64,000 nucleotides of DNA from Takakia lepidozioides. Lineage: Eukaryota > Plantae > Bryophyta. Made by a program: the position numbers and the translations under genes. Positions 23,198-64,000 of the stretch are shown piece after piece. The stretch is taken from positions 11,656,001 to 11,720,000 of the forward strand of contig CM060733.1 of assembly GCA_030704615.1 (NCBI GenBank). Reading direction: 5' to 3'. Under the pieces are notes generated by a model, which saw only the letters and a list, made by a program, of their open reading frames with translations, ran no database searches and was not told where the DNA came from. Numbering within the stretch: the first letter of the stretch is position 1; each line of letters opens with the position of its first letter.

Positions 23198-23222
23198 AAT
23201 TTAATGAAAGACTAGTGTCACC

Positions 23223-24638
23223 GGTGCATGAGCAATTCTTGGTGGCCAATTTACACATAATTCAATGAATGACGTCGACCGACCATTCGTAGGGTTGCCG
23301 GAATTCTACCTGGCTGCCACCGCCAACTACCAAACATTTTGTCATGTAGGTATCATGTGGCTATTGCAAAGCCCAGATGATTATCAACATCACTTCCCGG
23401 TAGCACACATGCATGGCCCACATACTCTACATTCATAGTTACATACAAACAAAATAATGTGGACGTGTTGCCCAAGAAAGTGGAATTTATGGTATCTCTT
23501 TATCACAAAAAACTACGTCTATACCTTCCAATGCAAGGTGGGACAATCAGCGTTTATTCTTCTCATTTTTCAAAAGTAGAATTGTGTATACTACCCAGCG
23601 CCCCATGTGGCGAAAAAAATGCGGGTTGGACTAGTGACTGAGTGGGCAGCATAGTGGCAGCCTAGTGACTGACTAGTGGTAGCCTAGTGGTTGGACTAGT
23701 GGTTGGACTAGTGGTATACTAGTGTATGGTGTGCACATGTGTTGTGTGGTTTTGGACAGCGATGTAGTTGTGTAGCGATATGTATGTGCACAACAAGTGA
23801 CATACTATATGTATACTACGTCTCCGCAAGCATGATAAAAGCCATGAACTACTTTCATGCCTTTCCTCACTGCCACCAATATTTATGCCCGGGCGAACCA
23901 TACTTCTAACCCCTCCTCAGGTTCTTCTCTGACCAAAGGGTGTTCCTACCGAGGACGTGGTCCAACTCCGTTTGCAGTGGGTCGTCTTCCTCATTAGGAT
24001 GAGGCAAGCCACAATGTGAAATATGTATATACTAGACCTCAACACGGTACATGCCTTCAGGAATAACTCGACAATGATATGTGTCTTTGCCAAACGCACC
24101 AGTGACAACTCCAGTGCCGGCCTTATGTCGTGGTGATGAAGGATCATACAGGTGGACTCTGTCCTTCAACTTAAACTGCACCCAACACCCACTACAAAAT
24201 GCATTTCTAGAACGGTCGCTATATGACAAGTGGCATGTTTTAACAGATCCATAATTGCATTCATACAGATTTTCTGGCGACATCTTCTTGTGCATCGTTC
24301 TTGTTTAGGCGAAAATTTGGAAAACCATGCTTTCATTTTCCTTTAGTGAGGTAGGAGATCCAAAAAATGGGAGCCTTTTGGAAAAAATTCACCAAGGAAA
24401 AGAAAAGAAAAGAAAAGCATTGGATCATACAACATTAGAGCCGAGCACATATTGTATAGTTATTTTATATTCCAGGAAAAACCAATTTGTTATTTTCATG
24501 AATTCCCAGTGACAAAAAAAACTTGAAATCCAATATAGAACTAAAGGTCCAAAAATTATGAAACCACCTCAATGCACCCCTCGTCATCGAGGGCTCTCCA
24601 ACAATATTAAGAACCCGGGTGGAGGCCTTACGGTTTCC
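23223..24638 (+). repeat. Dispersed repeat, direct copy of 31915-32748, with an internal insertion at ~23605-24200
   Basis: 23223-23600 matches 31915-32330, and 24205-24638 matches 32355-32748. Confidence 0.75.
23620..24200 (-). mobile_element. CACTA/EnSpm Tnp1-like domain fragment plus GACTAGT minisatellite
   Basis: VHLYDPSSPRHKAGTGVV...YHCRVIPEGMYRVEV*...LPHPNEEDDPLQTELDHVLGRNTLW resembles the Tnp1/En-Spm-associated domain. GGTTGGACTAGT-like repeats lie at 23624-23725. Confidence 0.55.
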
Positions 24639-24699
24639 AACATGACACACAAACCAAACAAACAAACAACCTTGCTTAACATATTGATGTGGTTAAAAC

Positions 24700-30911: not shown

Positions 30912-31095
30912 TAACAGACCGGGCAGACCCTCCAATAGACCGATCCAACCTTCTAGCGGACAGGCAGGTAGACTCTCCAGCAGACTGGGCAGACCCCCTC
31001 CAGCAAACCGGCAGACTTTCCAAGCAGACCCCCCCCCTTCGGCACCTCCGGCAAACCGGCTTGGACCCTCCAGCAGACCGGCAGACCCTTCGACA
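30905..31095. repeat. Degenerate ~20-bp minisatellite (CAGACCGGCAGACCCTCCAG-like)
   Basis: About 8 imperfect copies visible. Confidence 0.7.
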
Positions 31096-31914
31096 AAATA
31101 TATTATTAATAACACACATTACTGCCGCAATACAACCTAACGAGATTTAAACATCACACCTCGTGTTTATCATTCATTGCTCTTAACCATCACACTACCC
31201 ACCACTTTCTGCAAACCCATGCAATAACTAATGCTTTATGTGCATATTGTGGGCCCCAGCAGACTAGCTCATGTGTTTTGTGGGACTCGCTTGTTGGTAG
31301 AGACACCACAGCAACAACAGACTGGGAGGGTCCATAAGAGCGCTCCCACCCTCCGCGACCCCTCTACCACACGCGGGCCTGCCGCAACCACATGTGCGGG
31401 CATTCATGACCCTATTATTGTTAAATGAGAAGCTATTGATAAAGGTGAAGCATATTGATAGTATAGTCATGCTAAAAAATGTGAATCCATCCTTAGTGAC
31501 ATTTGCAATTGTGGGCACCACAAATTTTGATACATATTGAAACGATCATGCACAATTGAATACATATTGATCAATGTAGCACTAGCACTGCTCGATTCTC
31601 TTGACAACCTCTTTGTGCTAATTGTGAAATCTCAAGTTTTTGGTTCTTTTTTTCTCTTACTTTTCTGTATGCAAACAGTCCATCATCAATACTAGGAAAA
31701 CTCAATTCGTGTCCAAAAGAAACATGAAGTGAAAGAAATGGTTTGGAAAGATCAATCTTAAAATATGGAAATAAAGAAACCATGCCAACATGGCAGGACG
31801 CATCTTACAAAGCGTAAGATGCGTCTGAAAGGTTTGGAGGATCTTCGAATCACGTGAAAAACGTCCATTATGCACCTTTGATACGTGCCAACTTAATGAA
31901 CGGCTAGTGCCATA

Positions 31915-39836: not shown

Positions 39837-41923
39837 ATGCCTCCACCCACAACAGATGCGGAACCACATCACGTAGACTGGGAGAACATCTATCAGGTAC
39901 CAACACAGTGGACAGCACGGCAAGACTCTGTAAAGGGAAATTATAGCGGGAGCGTATCGAATGTGCCAACGTTGAAGAAAAAATTGAAGGAAGTTGTCGG
40001 GCCATACGATTTCAACAACCCTAATGTACGTGCATGATTCCTTGTTTTCTGAATTCCAAGTATCTGTAATTTGGACATGTGTCATGGTGTTACAACTTAC
40101 AAGCTCAGTTCGATGGAAGAATAGAGAATCAAAACACTAATCTGGAACATAACCCCCTCGTATCGATGGGCATTGGAACTATCCCAAGTACTGTTCCTTG
40201 TAAGCCGTGTAGGTTTCAGGACCATTGCTGTCCCATTGCTGTAAGACGTTAGCAGTATATAGCCGTTTGGGAGAGAAAGATACTTGTCGATCTGCTTTTG
40301 TAAGCATAATCCACATTGGTGCGAGTCTAAGTTAGGACAGAGTTGTAGCTAAAACTTGTACATCGTATAAGCTGAACGCATTACACACCTTCACGCAATC
40401 TGGATCATTCTTGAGTATATTCTTGAATCTCTTGAAAACCCATCTGGAAAGAGAAGGGAACTGGTAGATCTAAATATAAAAGGAAATTACACACCATGAT
40501 AGAAGCATGGTGGAGCTATTGTCAGCCAGCAGGTCTCTAGAAAGAGTGTACTTAAACATGAATAGAAGTTTTGTCTAACAATTTGCCTGTTTTCCCTCGG
40601 CTAGTAACTGAACTTTGCAGACTTTAGATTTTGAAGAGTTCTAAAGTTGGTTTGCGTGTCAACAGTAGAATCGGGTAAACCAGAGGTAAATCATCCTGGC
40701 AGTATTGGGTCAGGCCACTGAGGTTCAAAGTCGAGTGCCCAGAGGATGGTCCTATATATTATAGCCTCATAGGTACGTGCTCAAATCTTATACTCTTTGC
40801 TTCTTAGAGGTATTCTGATGCTTGACGAATTGACATGGTCAAATGATCCGATCTGCAGATCTGGCGAGCTTCAGTGGTTGAGTTTGCTGGGACGGCAGCC
40901 CTCACCTTCATGAGTATAGCTGCGGCAATAACATGTCAACAACAGGCGCAATCACACGGCTCCTCAACTTCGGCCGCCACATTCCCCACAGTCCAAGTTT
41001 TAATCTACTCTTTCTGCATTCTAGCAACAGCTCCTGTCTCAGGTGGCCACCTCAACCCAGCCGTCACCTTCGCCACCTTCTTGACCGGCCATGCAACTTT
41101 GGTCAGATCACTCTTTTATCTGGTTGCTCAAACTGCAGGCGGTATCCTAGGGGCTTATTTAGTGAAGAACATCATTTCTGCAGATTTGGAATCTACACAT
41201 CACCTAGGTGGATGCTTATTGAAAGATGTAGTTGCAGACCAGTCGACGGTTGGGTTGTCCCATAGGCAAGGGACTTTAGCAGAGGTCGTCTTCACCTTCA
41301 TCTTTATTTTTGTATCATACCAAGTGAGCCTGGAGCCCAGAAGCCTAGTAGTAACCTGGCCAATAGTTGGCCCCTTTGTTATAGGCACGGTCTTCGCCCT
41401 CCTCAACTTCGTCTCTAGGGGACTAGCTTCCCAAGCTTACACGGGTGCTGGTATGAATCCAGCAAAGTGTTTCGGGCCTGCGGTGGTCTACGGGAGAGAC
41501 TTATGGGATCCCCAGCCAGTGTTCTGGTCTGGCCCCTTGTTTGCTGCCATGGCCTTTGCGCTGATCCACCATCTGGTCCTCAGTAGAAACGTTCGAGATT
41601 TTCAACCTGGAGATTATCATCAGCCTCTGCTCCCTCTTAATTTTGAGTACCCAATGCCCGTCGGGGACCGCGTTCTTACCGATATGCTCCATGGAGAGAG
41701 GCCGGCTAGTCCGGTGGCTGGTGAGTCCCAGGAGCCTAAGAAGATGAACGTGGTGCTGCACATAAAGGCGGCCATGTTGCATCCGGGCAACAGCGAGAGA
41801 AATATTGAGGATGGCAGAATGCCGAGTGTGTCGGAGTTCCACAGAAGGTCGAGTGTATCGGAATTCCAAAAGGAGGTCGCAGATGCGACACTCTCTAGTT
41901 TCACAACAGTGATACCTATGTAA
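39837..41923 (+). CDS. XIP: Aquaporin, XIP subfamily with long termini, ~417 aa; join(39837..40025,40859..41923)
   Basis: EVVGPYDFNNPN|IWRASVVEF (same intron position as the paralogue); SGGHLNPA; HLGGC; GAGMNPAKC; VFWSGP. The start codon is uncertain because more upstream exons are possible. Confidence 0.9.
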
Positions 41924-45561: not shown

Positions 45562-48500
45562 ATGTGCAGCAATGCTTGCAAAATTGCAGGGTTGCTGCCG
45601 GTGCTGATTCTGGCTGTGATCCTTGTCGGAAGCTTCGGCCAAGGTTTGCGTTCCTCCTGTAGTATTTGCACGACCATTGCTGCAGCTGTACCTTGCCACT
45701 AAGGACTGTAGGACGTATAGAGGTTTTCTGAGTCGATTTATTTGCAGACTAAACTATATCGCCTGGGCATGTACTGCGTGGACGGCTGTGCACATGTATA
45801 GCCGTCGTCAAACTCCGTTCTGTTGACAGTGGTGGTCCTTGACATTGCAATGTTGCAGTGCAATATTGCAGCAAGGCATACCCCTGTTTTCTGACTCTGC
45901 TGGTAACTGATGAAGGGTTGGAAGGCACGAGAGTTTTCCCTGCACTAATTGATATGGCACATATTGAAATAGCAGGCTGGGGACAGGGGATTGATTAGTT
46001 GATATCATCTCAGATGCAGTTTCAAACTTGGATTTTGCAGAAGTTAAAGACTACAGCAGTTCCTATAGTGTATCCGCCAAGTCCTAGGAATTTACACAAG
46101 TAACTCAGAGTAAACAGGCAACCACAATTGAAGTAGTAAATGCGAGTGATGTACCTGGTTCTGTGTGTTGACTGTGTCTTTCTCGCTTTCTGGTGCAGAA
46201 GTACGGTCAAATGCGCATGGAAGTAATGAATGTGACTTGGTGACAAATTTCTTAAACCATGATAGATCTCAAACAGTGTTAAGTGAGGCAAGTACCCTCA
46301 GATTATCTAGGGTTCTTTTTTCTGCCCCTACTTTATTGGGGTTTTCAAAGTTGCGACCCCCATTTTCTTTCTTTCAAACCCAAGGACGACAAGTTGGCAG
46401 CTCAAGTCCTATTGTGGAGTTTCCAGCATTGCCGCAAACAGGAGCACCAGTGGCACCTGCTTTATTGCAAGCTCTCGGGACTGCACCAGTTGCCCCATCC
46501 ACTCTAGTGTCAGATTCTCCATCCCTAGCCCTTGATGTTAGGCCCCTCTTAGCCTCGCAGGGCCCTGCATCTCCACCTCAACATTCAGGTGCCGGGAGGC
46601 ATTTGGCCCCAATTTCACTACCACCTGTTGCAGCACCCAAGTTGCATGACCCAAAACCATTGCGTCCTTCACCACCTCCTCTCACAAAAAGACACGTCCA
46701 TCGCAATCACTCAAGTGTACAATCTGCAAAAGCACCGAAGGGATTGGTGCCAGCCCCTGCTCCACTTCCACATTCACCACGAGGTCACCATCATTTACAT
46801 CCAGGTCAGCACCTGCACTCGACAGAAAGATCGTATGTCGGTCACCCCTCCCCTTTCCCCTAGCATTTCTGGGTAAATTAGTAGTGCAAAACCTACCTTG
46901 TGTGTATGCTTATTCAAGGAGTGTTAGCTCTGCCATTTGCACAGCGCTTCCTGTCTGTTTGTAGCCATGATTCTCTGCCTGGTTTTCTCTGACATGGATA
47001 AGTTGTGGCGGTCTGTGTTTTTTGTTCACTTGGAGTGGTGAACAGTGCCTGGCCCAAGGCCTCTATCAAATGCATACCCGCCACCAGCACCAACCATCTT
47101 TAGTCCACCTAACAGTTCTCAAGGTATACTTTTCCAACAGTCAAACCTCTGCTTGAAGCAGTGTTTTTCTTCCTGGCAAAAAATCGCCAGATTTCAACCT
47201 GGAAACTACGTCAGCTACTTGTACAAAGGAATTATGGGGGGTAAAATCTGATTTTTTCGCCAAAAAGCAGCAGCAGATCAATTTCAGGGGCCTAATCTTG
47301 CCGACGTGGACCAGTTATAATATGCCACCTGGAATTTAGCCACTTTTCTAACTCTGTCACCTCGATATTCTCGCCCCATGGGCACTGTGTAGAATTCACA
47401 GGTGGCCCCGCCAGCGATTTTGGAAATATGAAATAAAAACCCACTGGCTTGAAGACCCAGGATATTGTGCAGTTCTCTCTTTTTAAGAATCCAGGTTTTG
47501 GAGGTGATATAAAGGGAATGTATATCGATCAGGCAATGTGGTTGTTAGGCATGGGAGGAGGCCAGTGGCAATGTCCTATCATAGACCATTATCCAACTCC
47601 CTCACGTAATATGAAATTGTCACATATTTATGATTAGTATCTTTCCGAGATTGTACCTTCCCTTCTTATTGCAAGTTGTTGACTCCATGAGACCTTGTGT
47701 CCTGTTCTTGCTCTCATCTGCTGCAAGTAGGAATATTGGAATCTTGCTGCCATGTCCTGGCTTTTGGTATATTACCATACCATTTGCAAACTTCGGTTCT
47801 ACCAAGGGAGGTTTTTAGTATGATTCTCTGAGTCTCACATATAATCCTCTCCGAGGCCTTCACAACTCCTGGGCATTGTAACAGCAGCTTCTCATACAGG
47901 ATTTCCTTAGATTGAGGCAAGTGTTGGCTCAGGGCTGCTGGTTCAATTCAAAGCTCCACATGTTTTGGGACTCCACGCTAACTTTGTGGGGAGTAGTTTG
48001 GGGAGAGAATTACTCCTGGTTACACCTGTATTCTCACCTCTTTCATCTGAACCTCTCTGTGTGAAGCCGAGTGCCATGGCTCTAATTCCGTCTATCTTGC
48101 GTCTGTTTATCAGGCATTATTCACAGTCTTTTCTTTGGCAGGTTAAGTAGGGTGCATACTCATATTTTGTCCTTTAGATGCTCTCTTGTTGCAAAGTGTC
48201 CAGAGGGAACGATGCAGGAGAGAGAATTTACTTTTGCAGCAGCCTTGTGCCCATAGCTGTGCCCAGTTTGGCAGATGTGTTAGGGAGAGAGTTCTCACTC
48301 GTTTTCTCCTCTTTGTCTACAGACTGCAATACACCATGTGGGGATGGCTACACCTACATGCCACCAGGCTCACCATGCGGTTGTGTCATACCTATTCAAG
48401 TGCAGCTGCAACTGGGGATCAATCTTGAGACCCTTTTCCCTCTTGTGTCGGAACTAGCAAAGGAGTTTGCCAATGGCCTCTTTCTGCAAACAAGTCAAGT

Positions 48501-51500
48501 GCGGATTGTAGGGGCAAACGCTGTTGATCAAAACCAGGATATGACTGATGTTAATGCAGATTTTGTGCCTCTGGATATGGCCTTTGATAACACTACTGCT
48601 GCACTCCTTGCCTCACGGTTCTGGACCCACCAAGTGCTGCTTAATGAAACGCTTTTTGGATCATACTCAGTTGTATATGTCCGATACCCAGGTATGATGT
48701 TTGAACTCCATGAGCTGGGTAAAAGTGTTTTCAGCTTGGTCATAGTTGAAGCAATTCACAGAATCAGGAAGATAATGAAGAAGAAGAAGACACTCTTTTG
48801 TTTGAATTTCATTGAGACATTCCCTCTTGGAAAGTGGTCACTGTGAGAATCCATACCTCGCATCCTTAACTTTATTTGTGTATGCAAATAATCTAGTTTC
48901 CTCCACTGCAACATTTTGCTTTGGTCCTTTTCTCATCCATATTGTAACCCAAGCTAAGCTTGCATACTTATATCCACGTCATAGATACCCTATATTATGT
49001 CCATCAGTTTATTCATAGTGTAAGATAAGACGTCCACAAGTTTGCTTAATGTGTGCCAGTGGAGTCTACAAGCTACTTAACTTGTGTGAATCAATTTCCC
49101 TTTGTTTGCTTTGTGTCTTTCATGTAGGTCTTCCTCCCTCCCCTCCTTCACAGGCTCCTTCAGGGGGAAGCACCCCGCCACCAGGCGATGAGGTGGGGAG
49201 CCAGCGTCCAATTGGGGTTGACATCACCAACAGGAGTCACAGAATGAACAGTGTGTTTATTGCAGTGATTGCCTTAGCATCAGCCATGGGTGTGGTGATT
49301 TTTCTTGGAGCTATATGGTTACTGCTTCTGCGTTGCAGTCTCCGAAGAGGGTCTTCATCATCTGTTGAACCTATTCTTGCTGCTTCCAGCACCAAACGTC
49401 CAGGTACACTTTTTGCTCAATTGCACACAGGAAAGGGAGCACAAGGGTAAGTGAGGAAGAGTGAAGCCAGGAGTGTGGCACTCAATGCCTAGAGAAAGAA
49501 AGAGCAAGCTGCCTCTTTATCCTCATAGAAGGCTCTCTCTCTCTCAGAGACACACATGCCCAGAAGTTTTTGTTCTCTCTTCCTTTATCTGGCTTTGCAA
49601 GTGAAGGTGTCGCAGAACAGACTTTGCAAAACCCAATCACAGCTCTGGCAAGCCAGGAAATGCCAACTTTATTGTTGCAGTCAAATCACACATCCAACAA
49701 GCAGCCAGCCCCTCCCAAAAGGACGCAATAGGCAGAGGCCAAAGCACCGTCTGATGAGTCTTTCCCAGGCCACAGCAATTAAAACCTACTGCCTACATCT
49801 GTGCTTGGTTTTTTCCCTGAAGCGTAGTAAAGCTTTTCCCTGTCTCTGACAAATCTTAGTTTGTAATCTGTGCAGGAGGTTCAATCTTGTCGGGCAGCAT
49901 TGCCAGTTCCACATCCATCTCATTTGCATCAAGTATGGCAGCATACACAGGCACTGCAAAATCATTCTCCCTAGCAGAGCTAGAGAGAGCAACTGAAAAT
50001 TTCAAGCCTGAGAACATTGTGGGAGAAGGAGGATTTGGAAGGGTCTATCAGGGGCTGCTAGATGACAGCTTGCCAGTGGCTGTCAAAGTGTTGACCCGTG
50101 ACGATCAGCAAGGGGGACGTGAGTTTGTTGCAGAAGTAGAGATGCTGAGTAGGTTGCACCATCGCAACCTTGTGAAGCTGATTGGTATCTGTACAGAAGA
50201 TCACATGCGCTGCTTGGTCTACGAGCTTATTCCCAATGGCAGTGTTGAATCACATTTGCATGGTATAATCCACCTTACACTGGATCATGACATGTTCAAT
50301 TCTTGCTGAATGTTTGAACTTCCTCTACCCCCTTGCAGGCTCGATTAGAATCCTCAATATAACAAAGTAAAAGCCATTAGATAACTTTGGGCAATGATTA
50401 TATAACTTGACCTTGTCAGCCTTTGTTACTGTGCAACAATTTAGGGCAAGGACAGAGTAGCGGTGGCGTCATTTGCTTATTAGGATGCGATTCAACTCTG
50501 TGAGGACACACCTTTACAGTACCAGAGTCAGGTAGGGAGGCTGGAGGAGCTGTTTGAAGGTGCTATGATCAGACTAGACAATTCTGTCTGTTGTCCATGA
50601 TGATTGCTTTGGTGAAGTCTCTGGAGAAACCCCATAATCCATGAAGGCAGTTGTCTGCGTGGGTGAATCTTGCAGTTACAAAATGTGAAACAGCCACATT
50701 GAGCGCCATTGGTGCTGCCCAGTTAACTTCTCTCTCTAATGTTGGCACTACTGAAGTTTATGTTATCAGCCATCTGTGCTATCCTGTGGTACAGAACAAA
50801 CACATTAGCTTCTATGATACCAGCTCCCTGGTGGTGATGTGGCACAACCCATCCTCTAGAAACTGATGATGATAGCTGATGATTGACCTCTCTTCTCAGC
50901 AGGTGCAGACATGCTCACTGCCCCTCTGGACTGGGAGGCACGTGTGAAGATAGCACTGGGTGCTGCACGGGGTCTTGCCTACTTGCATGAGGATTCGAAC
51001 CCAAGAGTAATTCATCGCGACTTTAAAGCTAGCAACATCTTGCTTGAGGATGATTTCACTCCCAAGGTATCTGATTTTGGGTTGGCTAAGGCAGCAGCTG
51101 AGGGAGGTGGCAGCGAGCACATCTCCACACGAGTAATGGGAACTTTTGGGTGAGTTTCCTTCCATTTGTTTTCATGTTTTCGCAATCTGGACACAACTGG
51201 TATTTATATGCACATGACCAACAGCTGGACCTTTTTGCAAGTGATGGAATGCATGCAGGTATTATTGATCCCAAGTCTTTGATGTTATGTCAGAGTTGTC
51301 ACTGTGGGCTCCCATTGGCATACATACAAGCAGATATGTATAACAGAATAAGACATGCAAGCCCTTCCCATGCTTTTTGGGTATTTAGTCTTACACGCGC
51401 TTTGCTTGTTTGAGGGCAGAGCTGGTGTTACTGTGGCTTTTCTCTCTTCTATGTTAATTTGGCTGTTTTGGTGGTTGGCCTGGCCACCCTCCCATTTATG

Positions 51501-52523
51501 CTACAGTAAGGTTCCCTCTCTGGTTGCTAAGCACATCTAGTGGGTGCTCTCTACTGCTATGTGCAAGCAAGGAGCTGGTCGTTAGGCGCATTCTAGTAAT
51601 TGCATTTCTCTTTGTATGAAGCAAGGAGCCAAAGCACTTTGTGGCCTACCTCCTCAAGGCACTTCGTCTTGTACAAGACTAGATTTATTTCAGTTCTTTG
51701 TTTGTTCTACCCTGTTCCATCAGCCCTTGTGACCCTCTCTGAATGTTACAACGTTTCTTTCTTTCTTTCTTTCTTGAACTTTTCGACATTTGTGTTCAGG
51801 TATGTGGCTCCTGAATATGCAATGACGGGGCATCTGCTGGTGAAGAGCGATGTTTACAGCTATGGAGTTGTGTTGCTTGAGCTTCTTTCTGGCCGAAAGC
51901 CGGTGGACATGTCTCAACCACCCGGACAGGAGAATCTGGTCACATGGGCACGCCCACTGCTTATAAGTAAAGAAGGGTTGGAGCTACTAGTTGATCCAGC
52001 CCTAGAGGGCAATTTCCCCTTTGACAATTTCGCAAGAGTGGCTGCCATAGCTTCGATGTGTGTACAACCTGAAGTATCACACCGGCCTTTCATGGGGGAA
52101 GTTGTGCAAGCCTTGAAACTAGTATACAACGACTCGGATGCAAGTGACTCTGGTCCTGGAGAAGATTCTCCAACCCCGCTTAAAAAAGGGGCAGGCCATG
52201 ACCCACGGTCACTGTTTTTGCCTGACAATTCATTTATTAGTGTTGATTATGACTCAGGCCCGCTAAATCGGCAGGACCTTGAGCAAGGGCGGCCTCTCTC
52301 TGCCTCAGCAGTGTTGACAGGTTCCGGGCGCTTTATTCGGCAGCTCTCAGGTTCTTTCCGGCGTCACAGTGCCTCGGGCCCCCTGAAGACATCCACAGGA
52401 AGCAAGCCGCCAGCATGGTACAGATTCGGGGGCCCAAAGGGCGGTACTAGGAGTGAGCATGATGGTGTTGGTAGATATCACAGACCTGGAGTGCGAAGGG
52501 ACTTTTATGGGTTATGGCCATGA
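45562..52523 (+). CDS. ALE2: ALE2-like receptor-like Ser/Thr kinase; join(45562..45643,46199..46804,47046..47123,48323..48691,49128..49403,49876..50262,50903..51149,51800..52523)
   Basis: Signal peptide ([17 protein letters not shown]); Pro-rich region; [12 protein letters not shown] ectodomain; TM helix; kinase motifs [25 protein letters not shown]|YVAPE. All introns are GT-AG and phase-compatible; the 5' exons are less certain. Confidence 0.9.
47159..47446. mobile_element. hAT-type MITE in ALE2 intron 3
   Basis: CAGTGTTTTT...AAAAACCCACTG termini with a perfect 8-bp TSD GCTTGAAG on both sides. Confidence 0.9.
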
Positions 52524-53799: not shown

Positions 53800-55491
53800 T
53801 GTGAGACCAAATGAAGTCCCAACACACAAAATACAAATATAAATATCCAAAATGTCCTAGTTAACTAGAAGTAGGTAATTCTAGTTAACCATGACTAAAA
53901 CCATGACAGTTGTCGTGCACCTAAGCATCGTGCCACAACATACATCGTTGTCCACCATACATTCTAAGCACACAATCTTAGAAAGCTATGCCACAATCGC
54001 CCCCCTAGCTAGTGATTAGGTCCCTCTAACACCGGATAGCTGACAAGTATCCATCTCAATAAGATCATCGCTTGGTCTTCAATCGCACATGTCCCAATTT
54101 TTTAAAATATATGGATCAAGAGGCCAGGTGCAACGAGAGCCCCATCGTTAATCGTCTGCTTACAATCCATGATCTTCAATTGAGTATCCATGGCGTTGAG
54201 CTCCTACCAGCTAGACCTTGGATCACTTGGCAACTCCACCATTGTCATACCCACTACCTATGTCCAAGGCATCATAGACACAACCATTCTCCACTAGGAA
54301 CCTCCTCAAGTGGCGGTATCAAGCATCCGATGTGCCACCCCCTTGAGCATTTGTCACACACCAACATGGTTGCGGCACCACCAGCATGCCCACATATCAT
54401 GCAACGCAACCCTGCATGTACCACTGCAAGGTTGGGATCTATCCTCCCATCCACATGTGGAAGGTGACATGGTGCACAATTGTGCACATGGTCCTTCCAT
54501 ACCATTCCATCTCGATCCTCCAGAATCAACACTCCTGAAGGCAACACCTCCCGGACCCTTAGAATCACACGTCCTGCTGTGACATCCAAAGTCGTAGGCG
54601 CTCTCTGCTGTAGATACACATAGTCCCCAGGGTGGAAACGCCGAACACCTGGCCGATATCTTCCTCCACGTATAGTGGCGTACCTCAATGTGTCTCGGTG
54701 TTGGGCAATAGCAAGGTTCTCAAAAGCCATAGTCATGACTCTCTTGAACAACTCTGCCTGCTGGACACATGCTTGTGTCCACGCATCCAGATCATCAAGA
54801 TTGAGGACTACTGCAGTCTCCTTGCGAATAGATGCAGACAAATCTGGCTCTTGGCCAAAGAGAAGGAAATAAGGCGAGAACGAGGCAAGTGATGTTTGTT
54901 TGCTAAACCTGTAGCCCATGGCCAACCAAGATAGCTGAAGGTCCCAATCTCCTAAGTGTCACTTCTGCAAGCCATACTTGCGCAAGCCTCGCTTGACTGT
55001 TTGTACAACCCTCTCTGCCAGGCCATCAGCCTCGGGATGATCCCGAGAAGTAGTGCGGTGATCTATCAAGGCTTGCTCACACAAAGCCTGAAAACTCCCC
55101 CAAGAACTCTCTCCCCTGGTCCGTGAGTACCTCGTCTGGAGCACCAAATTGGCTAAGCACTCGATCTAAGAATACATACGCAGCCCCCTCACTTGCCTTG
55201 TCAGGCAATGCCACCAGTTCAATCCACTTGGAGAAATGTTCCACCATCACCAGCACATACAGTGTTATGGCGAATCGTTAGTGGCAATGGGCCTGCGAAG
55301 TCAAGACTCCAACGATAGCCCAAACCCATAATGGGTAAAGGATGCAATTGTGGAGTAGGTGCATTGAAAGAAGCCTGCACTTTATCACACACCATGCACC
55401 TTGCCACTAACTGTTGCACATCAGTGTACATTTCCCGCCACCAGTACTGTCTTTGCAGCAAACTATGAGTGCGCCGCACCCCAAAATGTCC
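53800..55491 (-). mobile_element. Older Ty3/gypsy copy (same lineage): integrase-PHD, PPT and 3' LTR, truncated by the younger element
   Basis: Frameshifted integrase highly similar to the 56225-59242 ORF; PHD CMIC..CDKC..HIGC..WLCL*C; PPT AGGGGGGCGAT then TGTGGCA at 53995. The LTR left boundary (~53800) is tentative. Confidence 0.85.
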
Positions 55492-56019
55492 TGTCGTGCG
55501 CATACGTATCGCTACACAACTACATCACTGTCCAAACCACACCACACATATATGCACAATAAAGTAGTCTGCCACAATGATAATAAAACTAGAAAACACA
55601 CTGCTCACACCAGAAACAACATGAATCCATCGCTATCACTCTTTAAAACAGAAGTCGAGCCAGGGGCACCCCAAGCTATAGGGACTACACCCCACAACAA
55701 CCTACACTCTCATCATAAGCACACTCAAATCTAAACGCAAGAAGGAGCTCGGTCGCGCAGGCTCAACTCGAGAGAGATGAGCTGCGCGACTGCCGCTCTC
55801 GTGAAGATAAGACGGTTCAGGTGTCAAACTAAACTTGACACCTGACTTAACACTTGACCTAAATCCAAGTGTTAAATACAAATAACTAGCTTTATTCTAG
55901 TCATTTTCACACTGTGCTTATTTAACTTGACAGCTGTCGTGCGCATACGTATCGCTACACAACTACATCGCTGTCCAAACCACACCACACATATATGCAC
56001 AATAAAGTAGTCTGCCACA
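55492..56019 (-). repeat. 3' LTR of the DNMT-carrying element, with an ~85-bp direct repeat at both ends
   Basis: Starts TGTGGCA right after PPT AGGGGGACGAT and ends CACGACA at the junction with the older integrase. 55492-55576 is nearly identical to 55935-56019. Confidence 0.75.
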
Positions 56020-56224
56020 ATCGTCCCCCTAGCTGGTGGATAGGTCCCTCTACCTCCAGATAGCTACAAGATGTAATAGCCACAGCCGTACTAAGTCCTC
56101 TATCACTGTCCCTATTGTACTCAAACTCTATAGACCAAGAGGCCGGGTACAAGAGTAGCCCCATCGTTAGTCGCCGTCTTGCAATCTGTGAACTTGAGCC
56201 AGGACCTCGTGTGTTCAAGGTCTC

Positions 56225-59200
56225 CTAGTAGCTGGGCCTTGCGTTTCTTGTTAGCCTTCCATGGTTGTATCCACTCCCACTATCCAATGCAATGTCCCCA
56301 TCCGGAACCATCTCAAGAGGTGGAGTCAAGCATCCCATATGCCAACCTCTAGAGCATCGATCACACACCAGCATGGTGGCTGCCCCTTTAGCAGACCCAC
56401 ACAACATGCACCTCAAACCTGCAGATACCACTGCCAGGTTTGGGTCAATCCTGCCATCGACATTCGGAAGGTGACATGGCGCACAATTACGCACATGGTC
56501 CTTCCAAGTTATGCCATCCCGACCCTCCAAGACCAAGACGCCTGAGGGCAAGACCTCTCGAACCCTCAAAATAACACGTCCTGCAGTCACATCCAGGGTC
56601 GTAGGAGCAGTCTGCTGCAGATAGACATAGTCACCAGGGTTGAATCTCCGAACCCCAGGACGATAGCCCCCACCACGTATGGTAGCATACCTCAACGTAT
56701 CACGGTGTTGTGCAATGGCAAGGTTCTCGAAAGCCATGGGCATGACTCTCTTGAACAACTCTGCACGCTGCTCACATGCACGTGCCCACACGTCCGGATC
56801 GTCAAGGTTAAGAACTGTAGCAGCTTCTCTGCGAATGGATGTAGGCAAATCCGGCTCTCGGCCAAAGAGAAGAAAGTATGGTGAGAAGGAGGCAAGTGAT
56901 GCTTGCTTGCTGAACCTGTAGCCCATGGCTAACCAGGGTAACTGAAGGTCCCAATCTCCTAGGTGTCCCTTCTGCAAGCCATACTTGCGCAAACCCCTCT
57001 TTACTGTCTGAACAACTCTCTCTGCCAAGCCATCGGCCTCAGGATGATCCCGAGAAGTGGTGCGGTGGTCTATCAAGGCCTTGTCACACAAAGCCTGAAA
57101 CTCCCCCAAGAACTCTCTCCCTTGGTCCGTGAGTACCTCAGCTGGAGCACCGAATCGGCTAAGCACACAATCCAAGAATGCATACGCAGCTCCCTCACTA
57201 GCCTTATCAGGCAATGGAACCAATTCAATCCACTTGGAGAAGTGCTCCACCATCACCAACACGTACTTGTTGTGGCGCATGGTCAGTGGCAACGGCCCTG
57301 CGAAGTCAAGACTCCACCTGTAGCCCAATCCCATGATCGGAAGAGGGTGCAATTGTGGAGTAGGGGCGTTGAATGAAGCACGCACCCTGTCACACACCAT
57401 GCACCTAGCCACAAATTGTTGCACCTCTGTGTGCATACCACGCCACCAATACTGCCCCTGCAGTAGACTATGAGTGCGTCGCACCCCAAAATGCCCCAAC
57501 TCCTCATGGGCATGCCGCACTAACCGTGCCCGCTGTGTTGGGTGAGGCACAATCCTCACTCGACCATCCTCCCACACTCGGAGCAGGTGTGTCCCCTCCC
57601 ACTTGAACCTCTTGGCTCGTTGTAGGATCCGATCCCTCTCCTTGGCAGTCACAGTGGCTGCAGTGTCTCCAGTGCGGAGGTAGTCCAACACAACTGAATC
57701 CTCATGTATATCTTTGGCGCCACCTTGCTCATTGCTGGCCTCAGGGTCCTCAGACACTTGATCTACAGTCATCCCTGTTGCAGGTCCAACCTGGCCTTCC
57801 GCTGCCAAGATACACAGAAATGCAGATGCATGCCATCCGGGCACCATCTCCTCGTCCGTCTCACCATGCCACCGAGCTCCAGTGTCATCCTGCTGGCTCG
57901 TGCATGGATTGCGACTCAACCCATCTGCATTGCGATTGACCAAACCCGGTCGATGCACCACCTGAAAGTCATACTCTTGAAGGATGAGTGCCCACCGTGC
58001 AAGCTTCCCCGTAAGCTTGTCTGACTCCATCAACCACTTGAGTGGTTGGTGATCCGTGACAAGGGTGAAGAGATTGCCGTATAGATAGCACCTGAAGTGT
58101 GCCACGGCCCACACTGCAGCTAAGCATTCTCCCTCATATGAGCTATACTTAGACTCTGCAGCATTGTTCGAGCGGCTAGCATAAGCCACTACGAACTCTC
58201 TTCCCTCATCATCCACCTGTGTGAGCACCGCTCCAAGCCCCAGCATGCTCCAATCTGTATGCAGCTGAAAAGGACGCCCCCTGATAGGTCGTCTCAAGAT
58301 GGGCGCCGAGGTCAACCTCGCCTTGAGCTCTTGAAAAGCTTGTTCTTGCTCATCTTCCCACTGCCACTCCTGGTCCACCTTGGTCAGCTTGGTTAGAGCC
58401 TTTGCAATGGCACTAAATCCCTTAACAAACCGTCTGTAATAGTTTGCTAACCCCATGAAAGCTCGAACTCGGCTCACATCCGTGGGGCGTGGAACCTGTG
58501 CAATGGACTCTACCTTAGTCTGCTGTACCCCCAATCCTCCAGGATATATCATGTGACCCAGATACTCAATCTGGTTGTGGAAAAACTTGCACTTTCCCGG
58601 ATGTAACTTCAATCCGTGCGTCCTCAAGCGCTCAAATACCCCCTGAAGGTGTCTCTCATGCTCCTCCACCGTAGCACTAAAGATGATGATGTCATCTATG
58701 TAGCACCGAGCAAACTCCACCCCTGCTAGAATCCTGTCCATGACTCTTTGAAACTCAGCGGGAGCGTTTTTAAGCCCAAATGGTAAGAACCGCCACTGGT
58801 ATAGGCAATCCTTCCCGTGCTCATTGATCCCCCAGAATGCCGTCTTTTGCTTATCCGCCTCCTTGATCGGCAACTGGTGATATCCGGATCGTAAATCCAA
58901 CGTGCTAAAGACCTTGGAATGCCCAATGGCATCAAAGATCTCCTCTGGTGTCGGCATGGCATACCTATCGGACTTGGTCTGACGATTTACAGGCCGGTAA
59001 TCACCGCACATACGTCTCTCCGTCCAATTGCCATAGACATCCTTCTTGGCTGGCATCACTGTGGCTGAAGCATACTCTCCACCAGAGAGCTCCACCAAAC
59101 CTGCCTCCCAGAGATCTTGAGTCCTCATCTGAATCAAAGACCTCTCCATGTCACTGTATCTATAGGGTCTCCGAAAGATTGGCGTGTCAGTGGCCAACTC

Positions 59201-59401
59201 AATACGGATCTCTTGACCCTTCAGTGCTCCCAAGTCCTTCAAACTGAAGGCAAAGCAATTCCTGTAAGCCCTCAGGAACCGCCGTATACGTCGTCTCTCT
59301 CCTCCGGTGACAATGGGTCCAATGTCAGGCTCCCAATTGTCCTCCGTAACTGCAACCTTAAGTCCAGTGGGCTTAGAGGTAGAGGACGCGTCCCGTGGTT
59401 G
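56225..59401 (-). CDS. pol: Pol: RT-RNaseH-integrase-PHD (PHD end disrupted)
   Basis: LDLRSGYHQ, YIDD, LHTDWS, HEELGHFG..CMVC, WSLDF, VLTDQG, GLAER; PHD CMLC..CDRC..HMGC. The frame is open from the TAG at 59402-59404. Confidence 0.95.
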   Translation of the reverse strand, partial: QPRDASSTSKPTGLKVAVTEDNWEPDIGPIVTGGERRRIRRFLRAYRNCFAFSLKDLGALKGQEIRIELATDTPIFRRPYRYSDMERSLIQMRTQDLWEAGLVELSGGEYASATVMPAKKDVYGNWTERRMCGDYRPVNRQTKSDRYAMPTPEEIFDAIGHSKVFSTLDLRSGYHQLPIKEADKQKTAFWGINEHGKDCLYQWRFLPFGLKNAPAEFQRVMDRILAGVEFARCYIDDIIIFSATVEEHERHLQGVFERLRTHGLKLHPGKCKFFHNQIEYLGHMIYPGGLGVQQTKVESIAQVPRPTDVSRVRAFMGLANYYRRFVKGFSAIAKALTKLTKVDQEWQWEDEQEQAFQELKARLTSAPILRRPIRGRPFQLHTDWSMLGLGAVLTQVDDEGREFVVAYASRSNNAAESKYSSYEGECLAAVWAVAHFRCYLYGNLFTLVTDHQPLKWLMESDKLTGKLARWALILQEYDFQVVHRPGLVNRNADGLSRNPCTSQQDDTGARWHGETDEEMVPGWHASAFLCILAAEGQVGPATGMTVDQVSEDPEASNEQGGAKDIHEDSVVLDYLRTGDTAATVTAKERDRILQRAKRFKWEGTHLLRVWEDGRVRIVPHPTQRARLVRHAHEELGHFGVRRTHSLLQGQYWWRGMHTEVQQFVARCMVCDRVRASFNAPTPQLHPLPIMGLGYRWSLDFAGPLPLTMRHNKYVLVMVEHFSKWIELVPLPDKASEGAAYAFLDCVLSRFGAPAEVLTDQGREFLGEFQALCDKALIDHRTTSRDHPEADGLAERVVQTVKRGLRKYGLQKGHLGDWDLQLPWLAMGYRFSKQASLASFSPYFLLFGREPDLPTSIRREAATVLNLDDPDVWARACEQRAELFKRVMPMAFENLAIAQHRDTLRYATIRGGGYRPGVRRFNPGDYVYLQQTAPTTLDVTAGRVILRVREVLPSGVLVLEGRDGITWKDHVRNCAPCHLPNVDGRIDPNLAVVSAGLRCMLCGSAKGAATMLVCDRCSRGWHMGCLTPPLEMVPDGDIALDSGSGYNHGRLTRNARPSY

Positions 59402-62400
59402 CTATGCTGCAACCTCTTGAGCAGTACTCCCTTCCTGCTCAGTCAATGACAAGGCCTCATCCTGCCCCATCATCTCATCATTGAGAACCTCCTCATCCCG
59501 AGAAGAATCCCCAACCTCATCCATCACAGCTGCCTTGGCTGCCAACTCCCTCTGAACCTCGAGCACCTCCCACGTGTGCCATGGATGTCTACACCCCGTG
59601 GTCCTCACCGGCTCGCCCCCACTCGCTGCCTGTACCGTCTCGGTAGGCAGAGAGACCGTCAAGGGAAGTGCACTCCGCACTCTACGTTGCTCAGCCATAG
59701 CCAAGCTGATAATCCAGGTCAAGCAATTGAGATCCATTGCTTGCCCCAACACCTGACGACGTGATGCCTCAGAAAGAGAAGGCACCGCCGTGGTCCCAGT
59801 GGAAAACCCATAGCCCGCTCTCGCTCGTCGGCATTAGGCTCCACTAACTGTTGCAACTGAGCATCCCACAGGAGGCCAGGTCCACCATCCCGAAAAGCAT
59901 GGGATCCTGGGAAGCTGAGCAGTGTAGGTAATGCTGCTCGTGGTTGACCCACCCTGTTGACCACTGCCAAAGGCGAACGGTCATCGTGTCTCACACGTTG
60001 AGACTGCCTCCCTGTGTCCAAAATGCCATCCACGGTGAGGTGTGCTGGCCGCTGCACCCCATCAAATGCACGCTTGAGCAGTGCGGGTGGCATCAAGTTA
60101 GTCCACCATAGCCGTGGACGATGAGCCCGTGACCCCACTGCAGCTGCATCCAGCAACACTGCTGACCCAAGCCACGACCGGACTTGATGCACACTGGCCA
60201 TCACCCTGGCCCGAGAATCACCCATCAGTGGCACATTCTCCAAGATGTATGCTGGAGATACAGCTTGATGAAGCTGCAAGTGGCGCAAAATCCGCACCAT
60301 CTCCCAAAACAGACCCGTCCTCGAGTCTCGCAATCCATTGCCATGCCCGGCTGATGAATGCCCTTGGCAGGGCCAACCTGCCACTACCAGATCAATGGAG
60401 CCAACCTGCTCCAAATCCTGCGCCCCCAGCAACGAAATGTCTGCTGGCAAGGCTTGTTGGTATCCACGAACTGCAGACACTGGCAACAAAGCAGGGTACT
60501 GCTGTACCAACTGAGCAACATGGCGCAGTGAGACGCGTCGTGCAGTCTCATCCCTCTCCACATACAGGTAACGCCTTACCCGCACACCTGCCTGTAGCAC
60601 AGCAGCCAATCCGGTGCTGATCCCGCCAAACAAGTCCAGAAGGCAAATGCCTTCATCCGGATACTGCCACACAATAGGTGTGGTATCCAATGGTGACAAC
60701 TGAGGTGGTCCTGGTGCAATACCCGCACTCTCCTCCTCTCCTGACGGTACAAAAGCCTCTACCCAGGCTTGTTGCACCCGTCGATCAGCAACCTGCTGCA
60801 AATCCTTGCTCGTACCCCACAATGGAGTGTGAGCAACCATGGCAGGCAACTCCGCCATACCATGCATGTCATCCTGCTCTGCTGGAGGTGGCACATCCTC
60901 TGCATGGGCATTGCCTTCCAGCAACTCTCCAGGCCAACTAACTGCAGCTGTAAAGGCGGCTAGTGTTGGCATCTTGCCCCGCTGGGCAGCCGCAATACCC
61001 CCAATGAATGTCACAGGGAGCTGTGCACGACGACCATCCCCTGACTGCCATCCAGGCCTGTAGGATGCTGACTCCTCCCAAAAGTCCAGGGTGAAGCCCA
61101 TGGGGTATAACACTGCCCCACCAACGAGGACATCGTAAGAGACCGCGTCTGTCACAATGGCCTTGGCTCGCATCACTGAGCCATCTATAGGATGATCCGG
61201 CTGCAGTCTAATGGCCAACTGATGCCGTGTCATGCCCCGAGCCTGCTCTGATCCTCCCAGAGATGTCTGTATCTGGAAAGGACAAGGCTCCATATCCGCC
61301 TCCATGAGGCCCAAACCTGCAATAGCAGCTCTGCCCAACATCAGTGGCTGAGCTCCCGAGTCCAACAAGACCCGCAGTGGCCGGTACTTCTTGCCTGCCG
61401 GTCCACTCAAAGAGAAAATGCCATCCTGGTTGTCTAACAAGACAACTCCAGGTGTCACCATGGCGCGCTCAAAGGCTGGCCTAGCTGGCAGCTCCGTCAA
61501 CCTGGCAGCTGCAGCTTGCCATGGCGCAGCCGTGGCAGTCTTGACCCTCAAATCCGAGGATCCCTCTGCCACTACACCTTCCACTAACTCCGCAGAAGAT
61601 GAAGTGACCTCCCCACTCTCACAGAGTGTTGCTGCTAGTCTGAACACTGCAGCTGGTCTTACCCCCGGCGTCGCAATCATGGTTGCCGAGAACAGTGGGG
61701 CTTGACACACAGAGGTGGCTGCCCCCAACAACACACCGGCTGCACTAGCCTTGGCAGCAGGTGTCAGTGCTGCACGTGTAGCTCTCCCCAATGGCATAGT
61801 AACCTCCGCCTCGGTAACAGTCGGGCGAGAACTAGGTGCCATGGATGGCGTCGACACTGTCTCCGCCAATGTGAATGACTGAGGAAGCCTCGCCTGACGG
61901 CTTGCCTCCCCACGTTGTGGATCCAACTCCACCTCTGCACCTCGTGGCTCAGGAACTCGTGCTGCTCCTCGAGTCACGGCTGCAGCAGACTCCACCTGCT
62001 CTAGTGGTAGTGCTGCTCCGCACATGAATCCCATGCCTCCCATATCTCCTCCCTCAGGAGCAGGAGGTGGACCATCCCGCCTGGGAGCCGGTACCGCCTG
62101 AGCTGTAGCCATGGCAGCGAGCCTCTGCTCTAGCTGCTGAAGCCGGTTGGCCATGCCTTGGTCAACACCCTGACCTCCGCGTCCTTGGCCATGTTGAGCT
62201 TGCCCTTGGCCTGCACCTCGTGCCCGACCACCTCGTCCTCTCTGGGCTGGTCCACCTCGCCCCCGGCCACCATTGTTCCCTTGGAACTGGCCTGGGCGCA
62301 ACTCAGGATGCAAGTCATAACACTGGGCATCTCCATGCCCATACTTGCCACAATGCCCACACTGCAACTGTGCAGGCTGTGCTTGTGCCGGCCTTTTGCC

Positions 62401-63606
62401 ACTCTCTGGGCAATCTCTCTTGACATGGGGTCCTCCACATGTCCAACATATCACCCCTGGTTGCTGTTGGCCTGCAAAAGATGCCACGGGCCTCTGCACC
62501 TGAGGTCCCCTGTAAGCTCCATGGAACTTGGGTTGGGAAACCTTGCCCCCCTGACCACGCTGTTGGGCAGTCCCTTGTGCCTGTGGGCTGGCAGCTGCGC
62601 CTCGTGCAGGCATGTCCTTGCCAAATCCAATGGTAACAACTCGCTCCTCCACCATGTTGAGCTCAATCCGCTCAGCCAGCAGAAACACATCTGCTAATGT
62701 GGGTTGGGCTGCTTGTAACAGGGTTGCATCCCGCACCCTTCTCCTGAGCTCCTTGTCCAAAATTCCATACCAGAACTGGATTGCCTGAGCTTCAGTAACC
62801 CCTTGGGTCACACTTATCAAGCGCCTCATACGAGTGTAGGCCTCTCGCAAGCTCTCACTGGGTTTGCGCTGGAAGTCTTGCAAACTTCGCAGCTTCTCTG
62901 TCCGTACACCTTGGTAGTTCCTCCGCAACTCCTGGAAGAACTCCACCACCGGGTTGAATCTAGGCACATGTGTTGTAGTCGTGGCAGGAGGAGTAGTAGC
63001 ACCTTTTGAACTGGTACCACCTGCAGAAGTACCGGCACTACTTGTTCCACTACTAGTGCTGGCAGTGGGAGATATTGGTACTGATGCAGCTACTGGTCGC
63101 GTCGTGCCTCGAGTAATGGAGACGTAGTCAGGTGACCAATACATCCTCCACTCCTCAATCTCTGCTTCATGTCCTCGCCTGAACTCGTGGTAATCGTCCA
63201 TAGGCGGGCCTTCCAAATGCTGGAACAGTCCCTTCCACGCCATGAATGGGGTGAATAGCTGTGGATTGCGCATCTGCTGCAAATCACACCAGCTGTCGAA
63301 CTCCTGGATAAAGTCATCCAACTCGATTGTGCCCACAGCTCCAGAGTACCTACGAGGCCCCTTGGTAGCTCCATACATCTCCTCCATGTCGTCCCACAAC
63401 AATGGCGAATGAAACTGCACACCTGTTGATGAAGCCTCCGAGTCTGTGTCTGACTCTGCACTAGTTGAGGGTGGAGGTGAAGGTGGTCTGAACGAACACC
63501 TCGTCTGTGAACCCACTCTCACTGTTACTGCCTGTAGCCGTACTCCCCTCAAACCCTGGGTAACTCCGTAATGACACTCACAATGTGCACCTCCCCCACG
63601 TGACAC
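59402..63606 (-). CDS. Gag-zinc knuckles-aspartic protease-C5 cytosine methyltransferase polyprotein (one -1 frame change at ~59803)
   Basis: CWTCGGPHVKRDC, CGHCGKYGHGDAQC, LLDSGA. MTase motifs: I LLDLFGGI, II YVERD, IV AGWPCQG, VI ILENV, VIII RAHRPRLWWTNL, IX ERERAMGFP, and X RRQVLGQAM (in the shifted frame). Confidence 0.92.
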
Positions 63607-64000
63607 TATAAGGCTCTAGTACTAATTCTAATAGTGACACGGGTAGGCACGGGTGGGCACCTGTTGCAGTAAGGGTCATATCCCAGTGGCTCAGGGCACC
63701 TGCACCTGCATCCACCGCAAGAACTCCTATGGTTGGCTGGTCATCAACCCAGTCTCACCATAGAAGAAACACTGGTGGTCTTGCTGGTCATCACTCCAGC
63801 CTCACCACCGACAACATACTCTAGGATTGACCGGTGATCAAATCCGGCCTAATCCCTATGAAAGCAAGCGCCCACACAAAACCAACATGGCGCACAGTCA
63901 AGCATGCAGGTGTTGGGGGGGATCCAAACACAAGAAATCAAAACATCAACACCCCCACACCAAAATCCAGCTACAATGCTGATCCTGCAGAATATCCCAG

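Follow-up and report, generated by a model that had tools for sequence, protein, structure and literature searches.

A DNMT3-like cytosine methyltransferase in a Ty3/gypsy retrotransposon of the moss Takakia lepidozioides, upstream of a conserved stop codon in a predicted read-through context

Cytosine methylation is the main defence of plants against retrotransposons, and a retrotransposon that keeps a de novo cytosine-5 (C5) DNA methyltransferase (MTase) of its own over deep time is therefore a puzzle. The closest described case is KnitGypsy-Dnmt3 of the alga Klebsormidium nitens, a Ty3/gypsy element whose DNMT3 domain is intronless, non-permuted and under purifying selection and which has, according to a figure legend, DIRS-like A-coding-B-A-B repeats (PMC5890265; here and below, statements about published work refer to the accessible parts of the sources cited). 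Its authors, de Mendoza et al. (2018), inferred an independent acquisition "in the K. nitens lineage", described the element only from there and, with only an alga to work on, left the puzzle open; their 96-genome table includes Physcomitrella and Selaginella, and the text of their supplement gives no match to Marchantia or Sphagnum. Here we describe a related Ty3/gypsy element from a land plant, the moss Takakia lepidozioides, found in a 64,000-nt stretch of its genome (contig CM060733.1; hereafter the window, to which all coordinates refer).

We take the K. nitens protein KFL_009030040 (P0063; L and P numbers are our handles for loci and proteins) to be KnitGypsy-Dnmt3, for which the text of PMC5890265 gives no locus identifier. 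Its order is protease (PR), MTase, reverse transcriptase (RT), RNase H (RH) and integrase (INT), and its domain is 46% identical to that of the window. The two elements have in common a DNMT3 domain upstream of RT, split direct repeats, and RT and MTase ancestry, and fall in the same RT clade, which bears out the link to Klebsormidium made in the initial annotation of this DNA. The moss element differs in its land-plant host, in being far more abundant, in a PHD finger on its integrase (the text of PMC5890265 mentions none; another K. nitens pol protein, P0126, has one) and in a stop codon with a read-through context between MTase and RT, which P0063 does not have. In its branch the MTase would thus be joined to the RT reading frame only if that stop is read through.

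SymbioDIRS-Dnmt3 of Symbiodinium (PMC5890265) also has a DNMT3 domain in a retrotransposon polyprotein and split direct repeats, but is a DIRS element with a tyrosine recombinase, whereas the family described here has a DDE integrase and, in relatives, 4-bp target duplications. The DAM-LTRs/EpiLTRs (Fernandez-Moreno et al., bioRxiv 2026.05.21.726589) are long terminal repeat (LTR) elements with their own DNA MTase and a chromatin reader; unlike the moss element they carry an adenine MTase, a DNMT sister to DNMT4 and a chromodomain, and they are absent from streptophytes. In that preprint "streptophyte Gypsy-DNMT3" stands apart as a case that had been described before, and both it and PMC12344493 (2025) cite the de Mendoza element as "streptophytes" with no land plants named. 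P0181, a related PHD-bearing gypsy protein outside the DNMT3 clade, resembles the DAM-LTRs in that precomputed annotation assigns it PF05869 (Dam-type adenine methyltransferase). Of the non-chromovirus clades Phygy and Selgy (Neumann et al. 2019, PMC6317226), Phygy prefers to insert at NCGN, which the two target duplications found here (AAGG, CATA) do not fit; the text of that paper names neither a PHD nor a methyltransferase domain.

No report of such an element from a bryophyte or chlorophyte was found in the full-text literature (subscription papers, Repbase, figures and bioRxiv supplements being outside that scope), nor in the accessible text of PMC11982613, PMC10952607, PMC6317226, PMC9477723, PMC6453930, bioRxiv 363937, PMC6673714, PMC12730594, PMC8557442 or bioRxiv 2021.02.12.428880, in agreement with the initial annotation, which knew of none for embryophytes. 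A search of the read-through literature likewise returned no paper on this element. New here are the land-plant host, the predicted read-through layout, and a range across mosses, liverworts and green algae that is far wider than published; the lineage itself is known.

The methyltransferase domain and its class

The element lies on the minus strand, between about 63390 and 55490, and its features are given on that strand. Its C5-MTase domain (59698..60660) holds motifs I to X in canonical order: motif I, LDLFGG, at 60639-60622; motif IV, GWPCQ, with the catalytic Cys, at 60378-60364; motif VI, ILENV, at 60246-60232; motif VIII, RAHRPR, at 60129-60112, followed by WTNL at 60105-60094; motif IX, ERERAMGFP, at 59826-59800; and, in another frame, motif X, RRQVLG..AMDL, at 59761-59729. 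The catalytic Cys, the ENV of motif VI and the RxR of motif VIII are intact, and the motifs and coordinates initially annotated between protease and RT were right. The PF00145 match proposed as a check was found at 51.8 bits (E 1.1e-13; curated cut-off 22). Among family sequences of 31-70% identity (18 DNA references picked for absence of a stop, plus seven short proteins), the Cys of motif IV, the Glu-Asn of motif VI and both Arg of motif VIII are invariant in 25 of 25.

Compared with sequences in the PDB, the domain of the window has DNMT3A as its top match. A profile built from the 25 family sequences scored DNMT3A at 89 bits and DNMT3B at 82, against 60 and 49 for DRM, 41 for M.HhaI and 37 for DNMT2, and no DNMT1, MET1 or CMT entry was among its 58 PDB matches. 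L002, an intact homolog 70% identical to the window domain, was modelled with AlphaFold at a pLDDT of 93.6, and a fold search with that model gave DNMT3A, DNMT3B or DNMT3C over the full length in all 31 rows listed (E 4e-20). The motif order is not the permuted one of DRM, and the best stretch of the DRM structures covers only profile positions 3-135. By profile and modelled fold, then, this is a DNMT3-like, complete domain between the protease and RT of a Ty3/gypsy element, and not of the DRM or CMT/MET1 type, as had been proposed; the assignment draws on comparison with characterised MTases and on where published work places the K. nitens element. Phage MTases reached 63 bits against the family profile as the best of 58, and a phage origin was considered and rejected: the 58 matches on viral contigs are short hits of the ordinary MTase kind, with no locus of the transposable-element type.

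Bryophyte genomes also encode host enzymes with a non-permuted DNMT3 catalytic domain (PpDNMT3a/b, PMC6453930; MpDNMT3b, bioRxiv 2021.02.12.428880). Those enzymes, encoded by multi-exon genes, pair the MTase with a C-terminal DUF3444, whereas the domain described here has no Pfam match to DUF3444 and no intron, and sits inside a retroelement. The Marchantia element loci Mp4g09160, Mp8g17980, Mp6g11220 and Mp2g26090 are likewise distinct from MpDNMT3b (Mp5g09290).

In intact relatives, the ratio of nonsynonymous to synonymous substitution rates (dN/dS) of the MTase is 0.13 (L025/L026, dS 0.25), 0.15 and 0.12, like that of the protease (0.10-0.15) and RT (0.05-0.16); between the window and L002 it is 0.08, with dS saturated. 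Judged from these codon comparisons, the MTase is under purifying selection across the family, and the neutral evolution raised as a possible refutation was not borne out.

The copy in the window is itself damaged. A one-base frameshift near 59800-59806 puts motif X in the other frame and breaks the MTase of this copy, which consequently cannot encode the whole enzyme. Sequencing runs labelled as the same organism, from four studies of which one is perhaps the source itself, contain the MTase region, as does a plant metagenome. No RNA run is listed among them; X7 may be RNA. An intron near 59806 was considered as the source of the frame change and discarded, other copies being open there and related loci holding the domain in one frame; since contigs of all four runs aligned to this region include copies that are open at this point, the change is a lesion. 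The PHD finger is cut by a 13-nt deletion near 56294 that is missing in contigs of runs X5 and X7; the finger is complete in a neighbouring older copy and in homologs.

The remainder of the element follows the Ty3/gypsy order Gag-PR-RT-RH-INT. The first open reading frame (ORF1; 59807..63387 when counted from its first conserved Met, in MEEMYG, up to the frameshift; stop-to-stop frame 59719-63615) encodes Gag, zinc knuckles, protease and MTase motifs I-IX. Its N-terminus matches that of the Marchantia proteins P0005/P0007, and its match to the Gag family PF03732 is weak (E 0.005, below the cut-off). Two CCHC-type zinc knuckles (CWTCGGPH..C and CGHCGKYGH..C; 62335..62448) and an aspartic protease (61006..61470, with LLDSGA at 61368-61351; PF13975, E 0.008, below the cut-off) are identified by sequence motifs and kept in related loci. 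An acidic linker (59405..59697) closes ORF1 at a distance from motif X similar to that in homologs: annotated ORF1 proteins of Marchantia, Calypogeia and others end 77-188 residues past this motif.

ORF2 (56225..59401; 1058 codons) encodes, by Pfam and motifs, RT (E 2e-32; YIDD at 58702-58691), RNase H (E 8e-36), a DDE integrase (E 8e-14; zinc finger 57541-57377, core 57322-57041) and, C-terminal on the integrase frame, a PHD finger (PF00628, E 7e-7; 56290..56410) in place of the chromodomain of chromoviruses. The best solved matches to this finger are CHD4, PHD1 of KDM5A/B, KMT2C/D, WSTF, DPF3, ATXR5, BHC80 and AIRE. PHD fingers of these proteins mostly read unmethylated H3K4, from which we draw no firm conclusion.

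A conserved stop codon ahead of reverse transcriptase

An in-frame TAG (59402-59404) stands between MTase and RT and is conserved across the family, so the MTase is not simply part of one pol reading frame. The initial annotation had placed it inside the polyprotein: the PR-MTase-RT order holds, but motif X lies behind the frameshift and the conserved stop separates the MTase from RT. The codon is followed by CAA CCA, and the whole (59396..59404) conforms to UAG-CAR-YYA, the read-through signal of tobacco mosaic virus (TMV), which is functional in plant cells and gives 6-10% read-through in transgenic Arabidopsis (PMC2754532). Stop and 3' hexamer are identical to the TMV type; the difference is that here read-through is predicted between Gag-PR-MTase and RT-RH-INT of a retrotransposon.

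We surveyed 46 loci, the window included, that hold both motif X and the start of RT. An in-frame stop followed by CARYY, 45-66 nt before RT, is present in 37 of them; four have another stop context and five no stop. Among mutational stops, the same CARYY context occurs in only 11 of 542. Decay by mutation was considered as the source of the TAG and is ruled out by this retention of stop and context. In a run X8 contig the TAG is likewise retained, both of the only two differences over 59340-59573 lying elsewhere. Six of the 37 stop loci (the window, L002, L025, L026, L030 and L065) have the strict CARYYA, and the remaining 31 have CARYYC/T. The linker proteins flanking the stop are unalike between lineages, and the strict form, each time in the reading frame of RT, recurs in unalike sequence in the window, L002, L025/L026 and L030/L065. 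L025, L026, L030 and L065, together with P0073/P0033 and P0074, are intact elements with strict TAG-CARYYA on environmental contigs; one cluster member of that group is filed as an uncultured cyanobacterial protein and is probably a mislabelled eukaryotic contig.

We predict programmed read-through at this UAG, by which the MTase would be contained in a Gag product made in abundance. CARYYA-type signals are also known from Sirevirus env and from some gag-pol junctions. A stem-loop 3' of the stop was examined as a stimulatory element and was not supported: one 131-nt segment had a z of -3.3, but 110-nt segments gave -0.4 to -1.5 in nine of ten loci (the exception being L065, z -4.3), and a control segment in the element reached -4.05.

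Range, ancestry and termini of the family

A search for longer homologs gave 67 proteins, including some from Marchantia polymorpha (many, the best 74% identical), Calypogeia fissa (73%), K. nitens (46%), Sphagnum troendelagicum, S. fallax and Monoraphidium neglectum. A HMMER search returned 219 representatives at E up to 1e-30; of 20 proteins checked for host names, those that had one included Scenedesmus sp., four strains of Closterium and, as a pol fragment 70% identical to the pol of the window, Coleochaete. Tetraselmis proteins have a weak MTase match before RT, below the Pfam limit. Among the 120 listed pol hits, neither Physcomitrium nor Selaginella nor any fern is named. Annotations of liverwort and peat-moss genomes enter such loci as hypothetical or DNA (cytosine-5) methyltransferase genes, and the loci can thereby inflate counts of DNMT genes.

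Metagenome loci, of which 80 of 117 were kept, fall into two layouts, PR-MTase-RT and RH-MTase-INT, and other loci thus carry the MTase in the same position as the window, which refutes a one-off capture for the family. The RH-MTase-INT layout is found in L048, L050-L055, L059, L062, L072, L079, L080 and P0209 and includes the Scenedesmus and Monoraphidium proteins. All MTase-bearing elements form one RT clade (support 100), within which the RH-MTase-INT elements are a single clade in both the RT and the MTase trees. For 39 elements, the two trees have 18 of 36 splits in common, 13 of them strongly supported in both and none in strong conflict; random labels give at most two common splits, and none of 2000 permutations reached the observed Mantel r of 0.65. 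This congruence points to one ancient capture and one relocation, not to a Klebsormidium-specific event. The capture of a DNMT3 was likely a single event early in the history of green plants, and in one chlorophyte branch the domain was likely shifted to a site between RNase H and integrase; with so wide a spread, the published idea of a Klebsormidium-specific capture would need revision.

Deep RT clades track host groups (bryophytes, Closterium, Tetraselmis and Chlorophyceae). Sphagnum-like copies nest within liverwort copies (L003, L005 and L010 versus P0012, P0018 and P0076), a candidate case of horizontal transfer between liverworts and peat moss, and a tree constrained to unite the moss copies is rejected (p-AU 5e-7, the group having been named after the first tree was seen). 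Within bryophytes the element tree thus departs from the host tree, which implicates horizontal transfer or old paralogs.

The host in the window is a land plant, as had been claimed. An intron-containing ALE2-like receptor kinase gene of moss type (46000..52523, plus strand, 5' boundary approximate) provides the context; its best match is a moss protein at 73% identity, and in a tree of its last exon only (34 rows) it groups with mosses (support 98/98) on a short branch, outside the Sphagnum and Funariales/Ceratodon subclades. In run X1, 19,329 contigs matched a 1.36-kb MTase stretch and 102,142 matched 11.5 kb; summed contig depth, which is not copy number, was about 1e6 along Gag, MTase, RT and integrase alike, versus about 60 on the host flank. 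Allowing for overlap of short contigs, this depth suggests thousands of family copies. Run X7 contains both the 3' end of the host kinase and 2.2 kb of the element. No run contig spans host flank and element, so that the single insertion stands without independent confirmation from these contigs.

The 3' end of the element in the window consists of a polypurine tract (56020..56031), a first copy of repeat B (55935..56019; 85 nt, starting TG and ending CGACA), segment A (55579..55932; 354 nt, starting TGTCA) and a second copy of B that forms the 3' end (55492..55578; 99% identical to the first over 88 nt); a 5' copy of A would fall beyond position 64000. Full-length relatives L033 and L061 have the arrangement A-coding-B-A-B, and the repeat pattern is partly present in L005, L020 and L071. 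These two, the only loci holding both ends, begin and end TGTCA...GACA, are flanked by 4-bp target duplications (AAGG in L033, CATA in L061) and show no TGG tRNA primer site after the 5' A. The initial description as an LTR retrotransposon therefore holds for the Ty3/gypsy order, the TG...CA ends, the polypurine tract and the 4-bp target duplications, the polypurine tract and the 3' CA being present in the window itself, but the termini are split direct repeats and not two equal LTRs with a tRNA primer site. Split-repeat ends on an integrase element were recorded at 55492-56019 (minus strand) in the window, at 10238-10805 in L033 and at 14550-15118 in L061.

The first B and A join at a palindromic junction, GACA-GC-TGTC, that links the last and first bases of the element across two nucleotides and resembles the junction of a two-LTR circle. 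Of 23 loci whose sequence extends 700 nt or more past the PHD finger, 9 have this junction, in both layouts, against a shuffled background of 0.011 per kb; a multi-locus alignment of junctions was selected by the junction motif and is no independent test. Junction-templated completion of ends has been proposed for DIRS/PAT elements. By analogy, the B/A junction may template both ends during reverse transcription here, with integration by the DDE integrase.

An older copy of the same family, 78% identical (53904..55491, minus strand), contains integrase, a complete PHD finger, the polypurine tract, B and the B/A junction, with no MTase part inside the window. It lies flush against the 3' end of the younger copy or is interrupted by it, which suggests insertion into its own kind. 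An isolated B-like repeat, 83% identical, lies at 23711..23795 (plus strand).

Proposed mechanism, alternatives and other features of the window

We lean towards a model in which the enzyme is carried along with Gag in the particle and methylates new complementary DNA (cDNA) before integration. The initial annotation had likewise suggested packaging, with the cDNA or the target site as substrate. Ribosomes would mostly stop at the UAG and a minority read through, yielding much Gag-PR-MTase and little full polyprotein; the protease would free the MTase inside the particle; and new, unmethylated cDNA would be methylated de novo and enter a methylated genome pre-marked, whether as camouflage against host recognition or as built-in damping of expression. 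The PHD finger of the integrase may read histone H3 tails and so steer insertion. In favour of this model, the related domains of SymbioDIRS-Dnmt3 show de novo CG methylation in yeast (PMC5890265). The model makes a sharp and cheap prediction, enzyme at Gag level inside particles, and copies in Marchantia polymorpha, for which met1 and dnmt3b lines exist, together with the abundant young moss family, make the question testable.

The placement of the active enzyme and the use of the stop could be read otherwise. An enzyme working in the nucleus on chromatin, at the insertion site, on integrated copies or more widely, would also be abundant if made at Gag level; the PHD finger shows that the element engages chromatin, and possible consequences for the methylome of the host are considered by de Mendoza et al. 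(2018; PMC5890265). We nevertheless judge it unlikely, as fusion to Gag and protease would favour packaging, the MTase of the chlorophyte branch sits among the cDNA-handling enzymes, and no targeting domain is attached to it. That the domain is kept for nucleic-acid binding, or methylates element RNA or an RNA:DNA hybrid and not double-stranded DNA, would fit the inactivity of the KnitGypsy domain on yeast DNA and the lack of CpG or CHG depletion; the invariance of all DNA-C5 catalytic residues and a closest structural match to DNA-bound DNMT3, with DNMT2 far lower, make it very unlikely. The stop may be real and ORF2 nonetheless produced by re-initiation or splicing: several annotated pol proteins begin at a Met shortly before RT, no stimulatory stem-loop is conserved, and in the Sphagnum-like family the sixth base breaks the CARYYA consensus. 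In the window, however, the first Met of ORF2 is residue 85, within the RT region, and the strict CARYYA in unalike sequences always stands in the RT frame, and we regard this route as distinctly unlikely.

Horizontal transfer among green plants of wet habitats, in place of or in addition to one ancient vertical lineage, is a tentative but serious explanation of the wide range: the nesting of Sphagnum-like among liverwort copies, the close Coleochaete pol and the missing Physcomitrium, Selaginella and fern hits speak for it, while the deep RT clades follow host groups, ancient paralogs with loss would yield the same pattern, and most tree rows have no host name. A neutral passenger, one-off capture, contaminant or chimeric assembly is scarcely credible. 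The broken window copy and the missing junction contig would suit such an origin, but the MTase has the same position in dozens of loci and in named genomes and is under purifying selection, and the family recurs in same-organism runs of four studies, one of them with kinase and element. None of the outcomes initially named as fatal (one-off capture, neutrality, no PF00145 match, contaminant or chimera) was found.

To the full reading we assign a probability of roughly 0.35: that an unrecognised clade of integrase retrotransposons, spread across the whole green lineage, already had a working DNMT3 before the chlorophyte/streptophyte split and has kept it; that in bryophytes programmed read-through loads particles with it at capsid stoichiometry, so that new copies arrive methylated; that replication is DIRS-like, by split repeats without a tRNA primer; and that the family, probably with thousands of copies here, may shape the host methylome. 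Several observations weigh against the particle-and-cDNA model favoured above. The window copy is broken twice, by the frameshift and the PHD deletion. The 31 CARYYC/T loci are one close, decayed Sphagnum-like family, some of them assembled twice, so that independent stop lineages number about four; this family usually has an ATG 6 nt past the stop, which would also permit re-initiation. The algal members P0063, P0140 and P0209 encode MTase and RT in one ORF, and Gag-level amounts of enzyme are thus not essential to the lineage. Depletion of CpG or CHG beyond that of the host was not seen (observed/expected CpG 0.42-0.59 in the element versus 0.53-0.59 in the host), and self-methylation has therefore left no visible trace, while the KnitGypsy domain gave no methylation in yeast, a result that its authors call inconclusive (PMC5890265).

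Evidence on selection and ancestry has its own limits, which count on the same side. Variants within this organism speak for purifying selection: of the 31 listed for the MTase, 20 are synonymous and 11 non-synonymous, where a synonymous share of 26-32% was expected (p 7e-6 to 2e-4). These 31 are, however, those in the MTase among the 40 best-supported of 86 rows over 59340-60700, and linker variants show the same 2:1 ratio. In decayed Sphagnum-like copies, dN/dS is 0.42-0.88 for the MTase and 0.39-0.60 for RT, the MTase exceeding RT in two pairs. The broad trees were made with FastTree and hold no host DNMT3 or DRM sequences; a 14-row tree was made with IQ-TREE.

Elsewhere in the window, two divergent MIP/aquaporin genes (PF00230) lie at 14748-15434 and 40847-41923 (plus strand). 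A tandem array of about 12 copies of a 146-bp, partly self-complementary unit (28447-30336) adjoins a 370-codon frame with no Pfam match (27293-28405, minus strand). Long inverted and direct repeat pairs at 18738-23055, 20241-33605 and 23196-24637 with 31888-32749 are probably nested non-autonomous DNA transposons.

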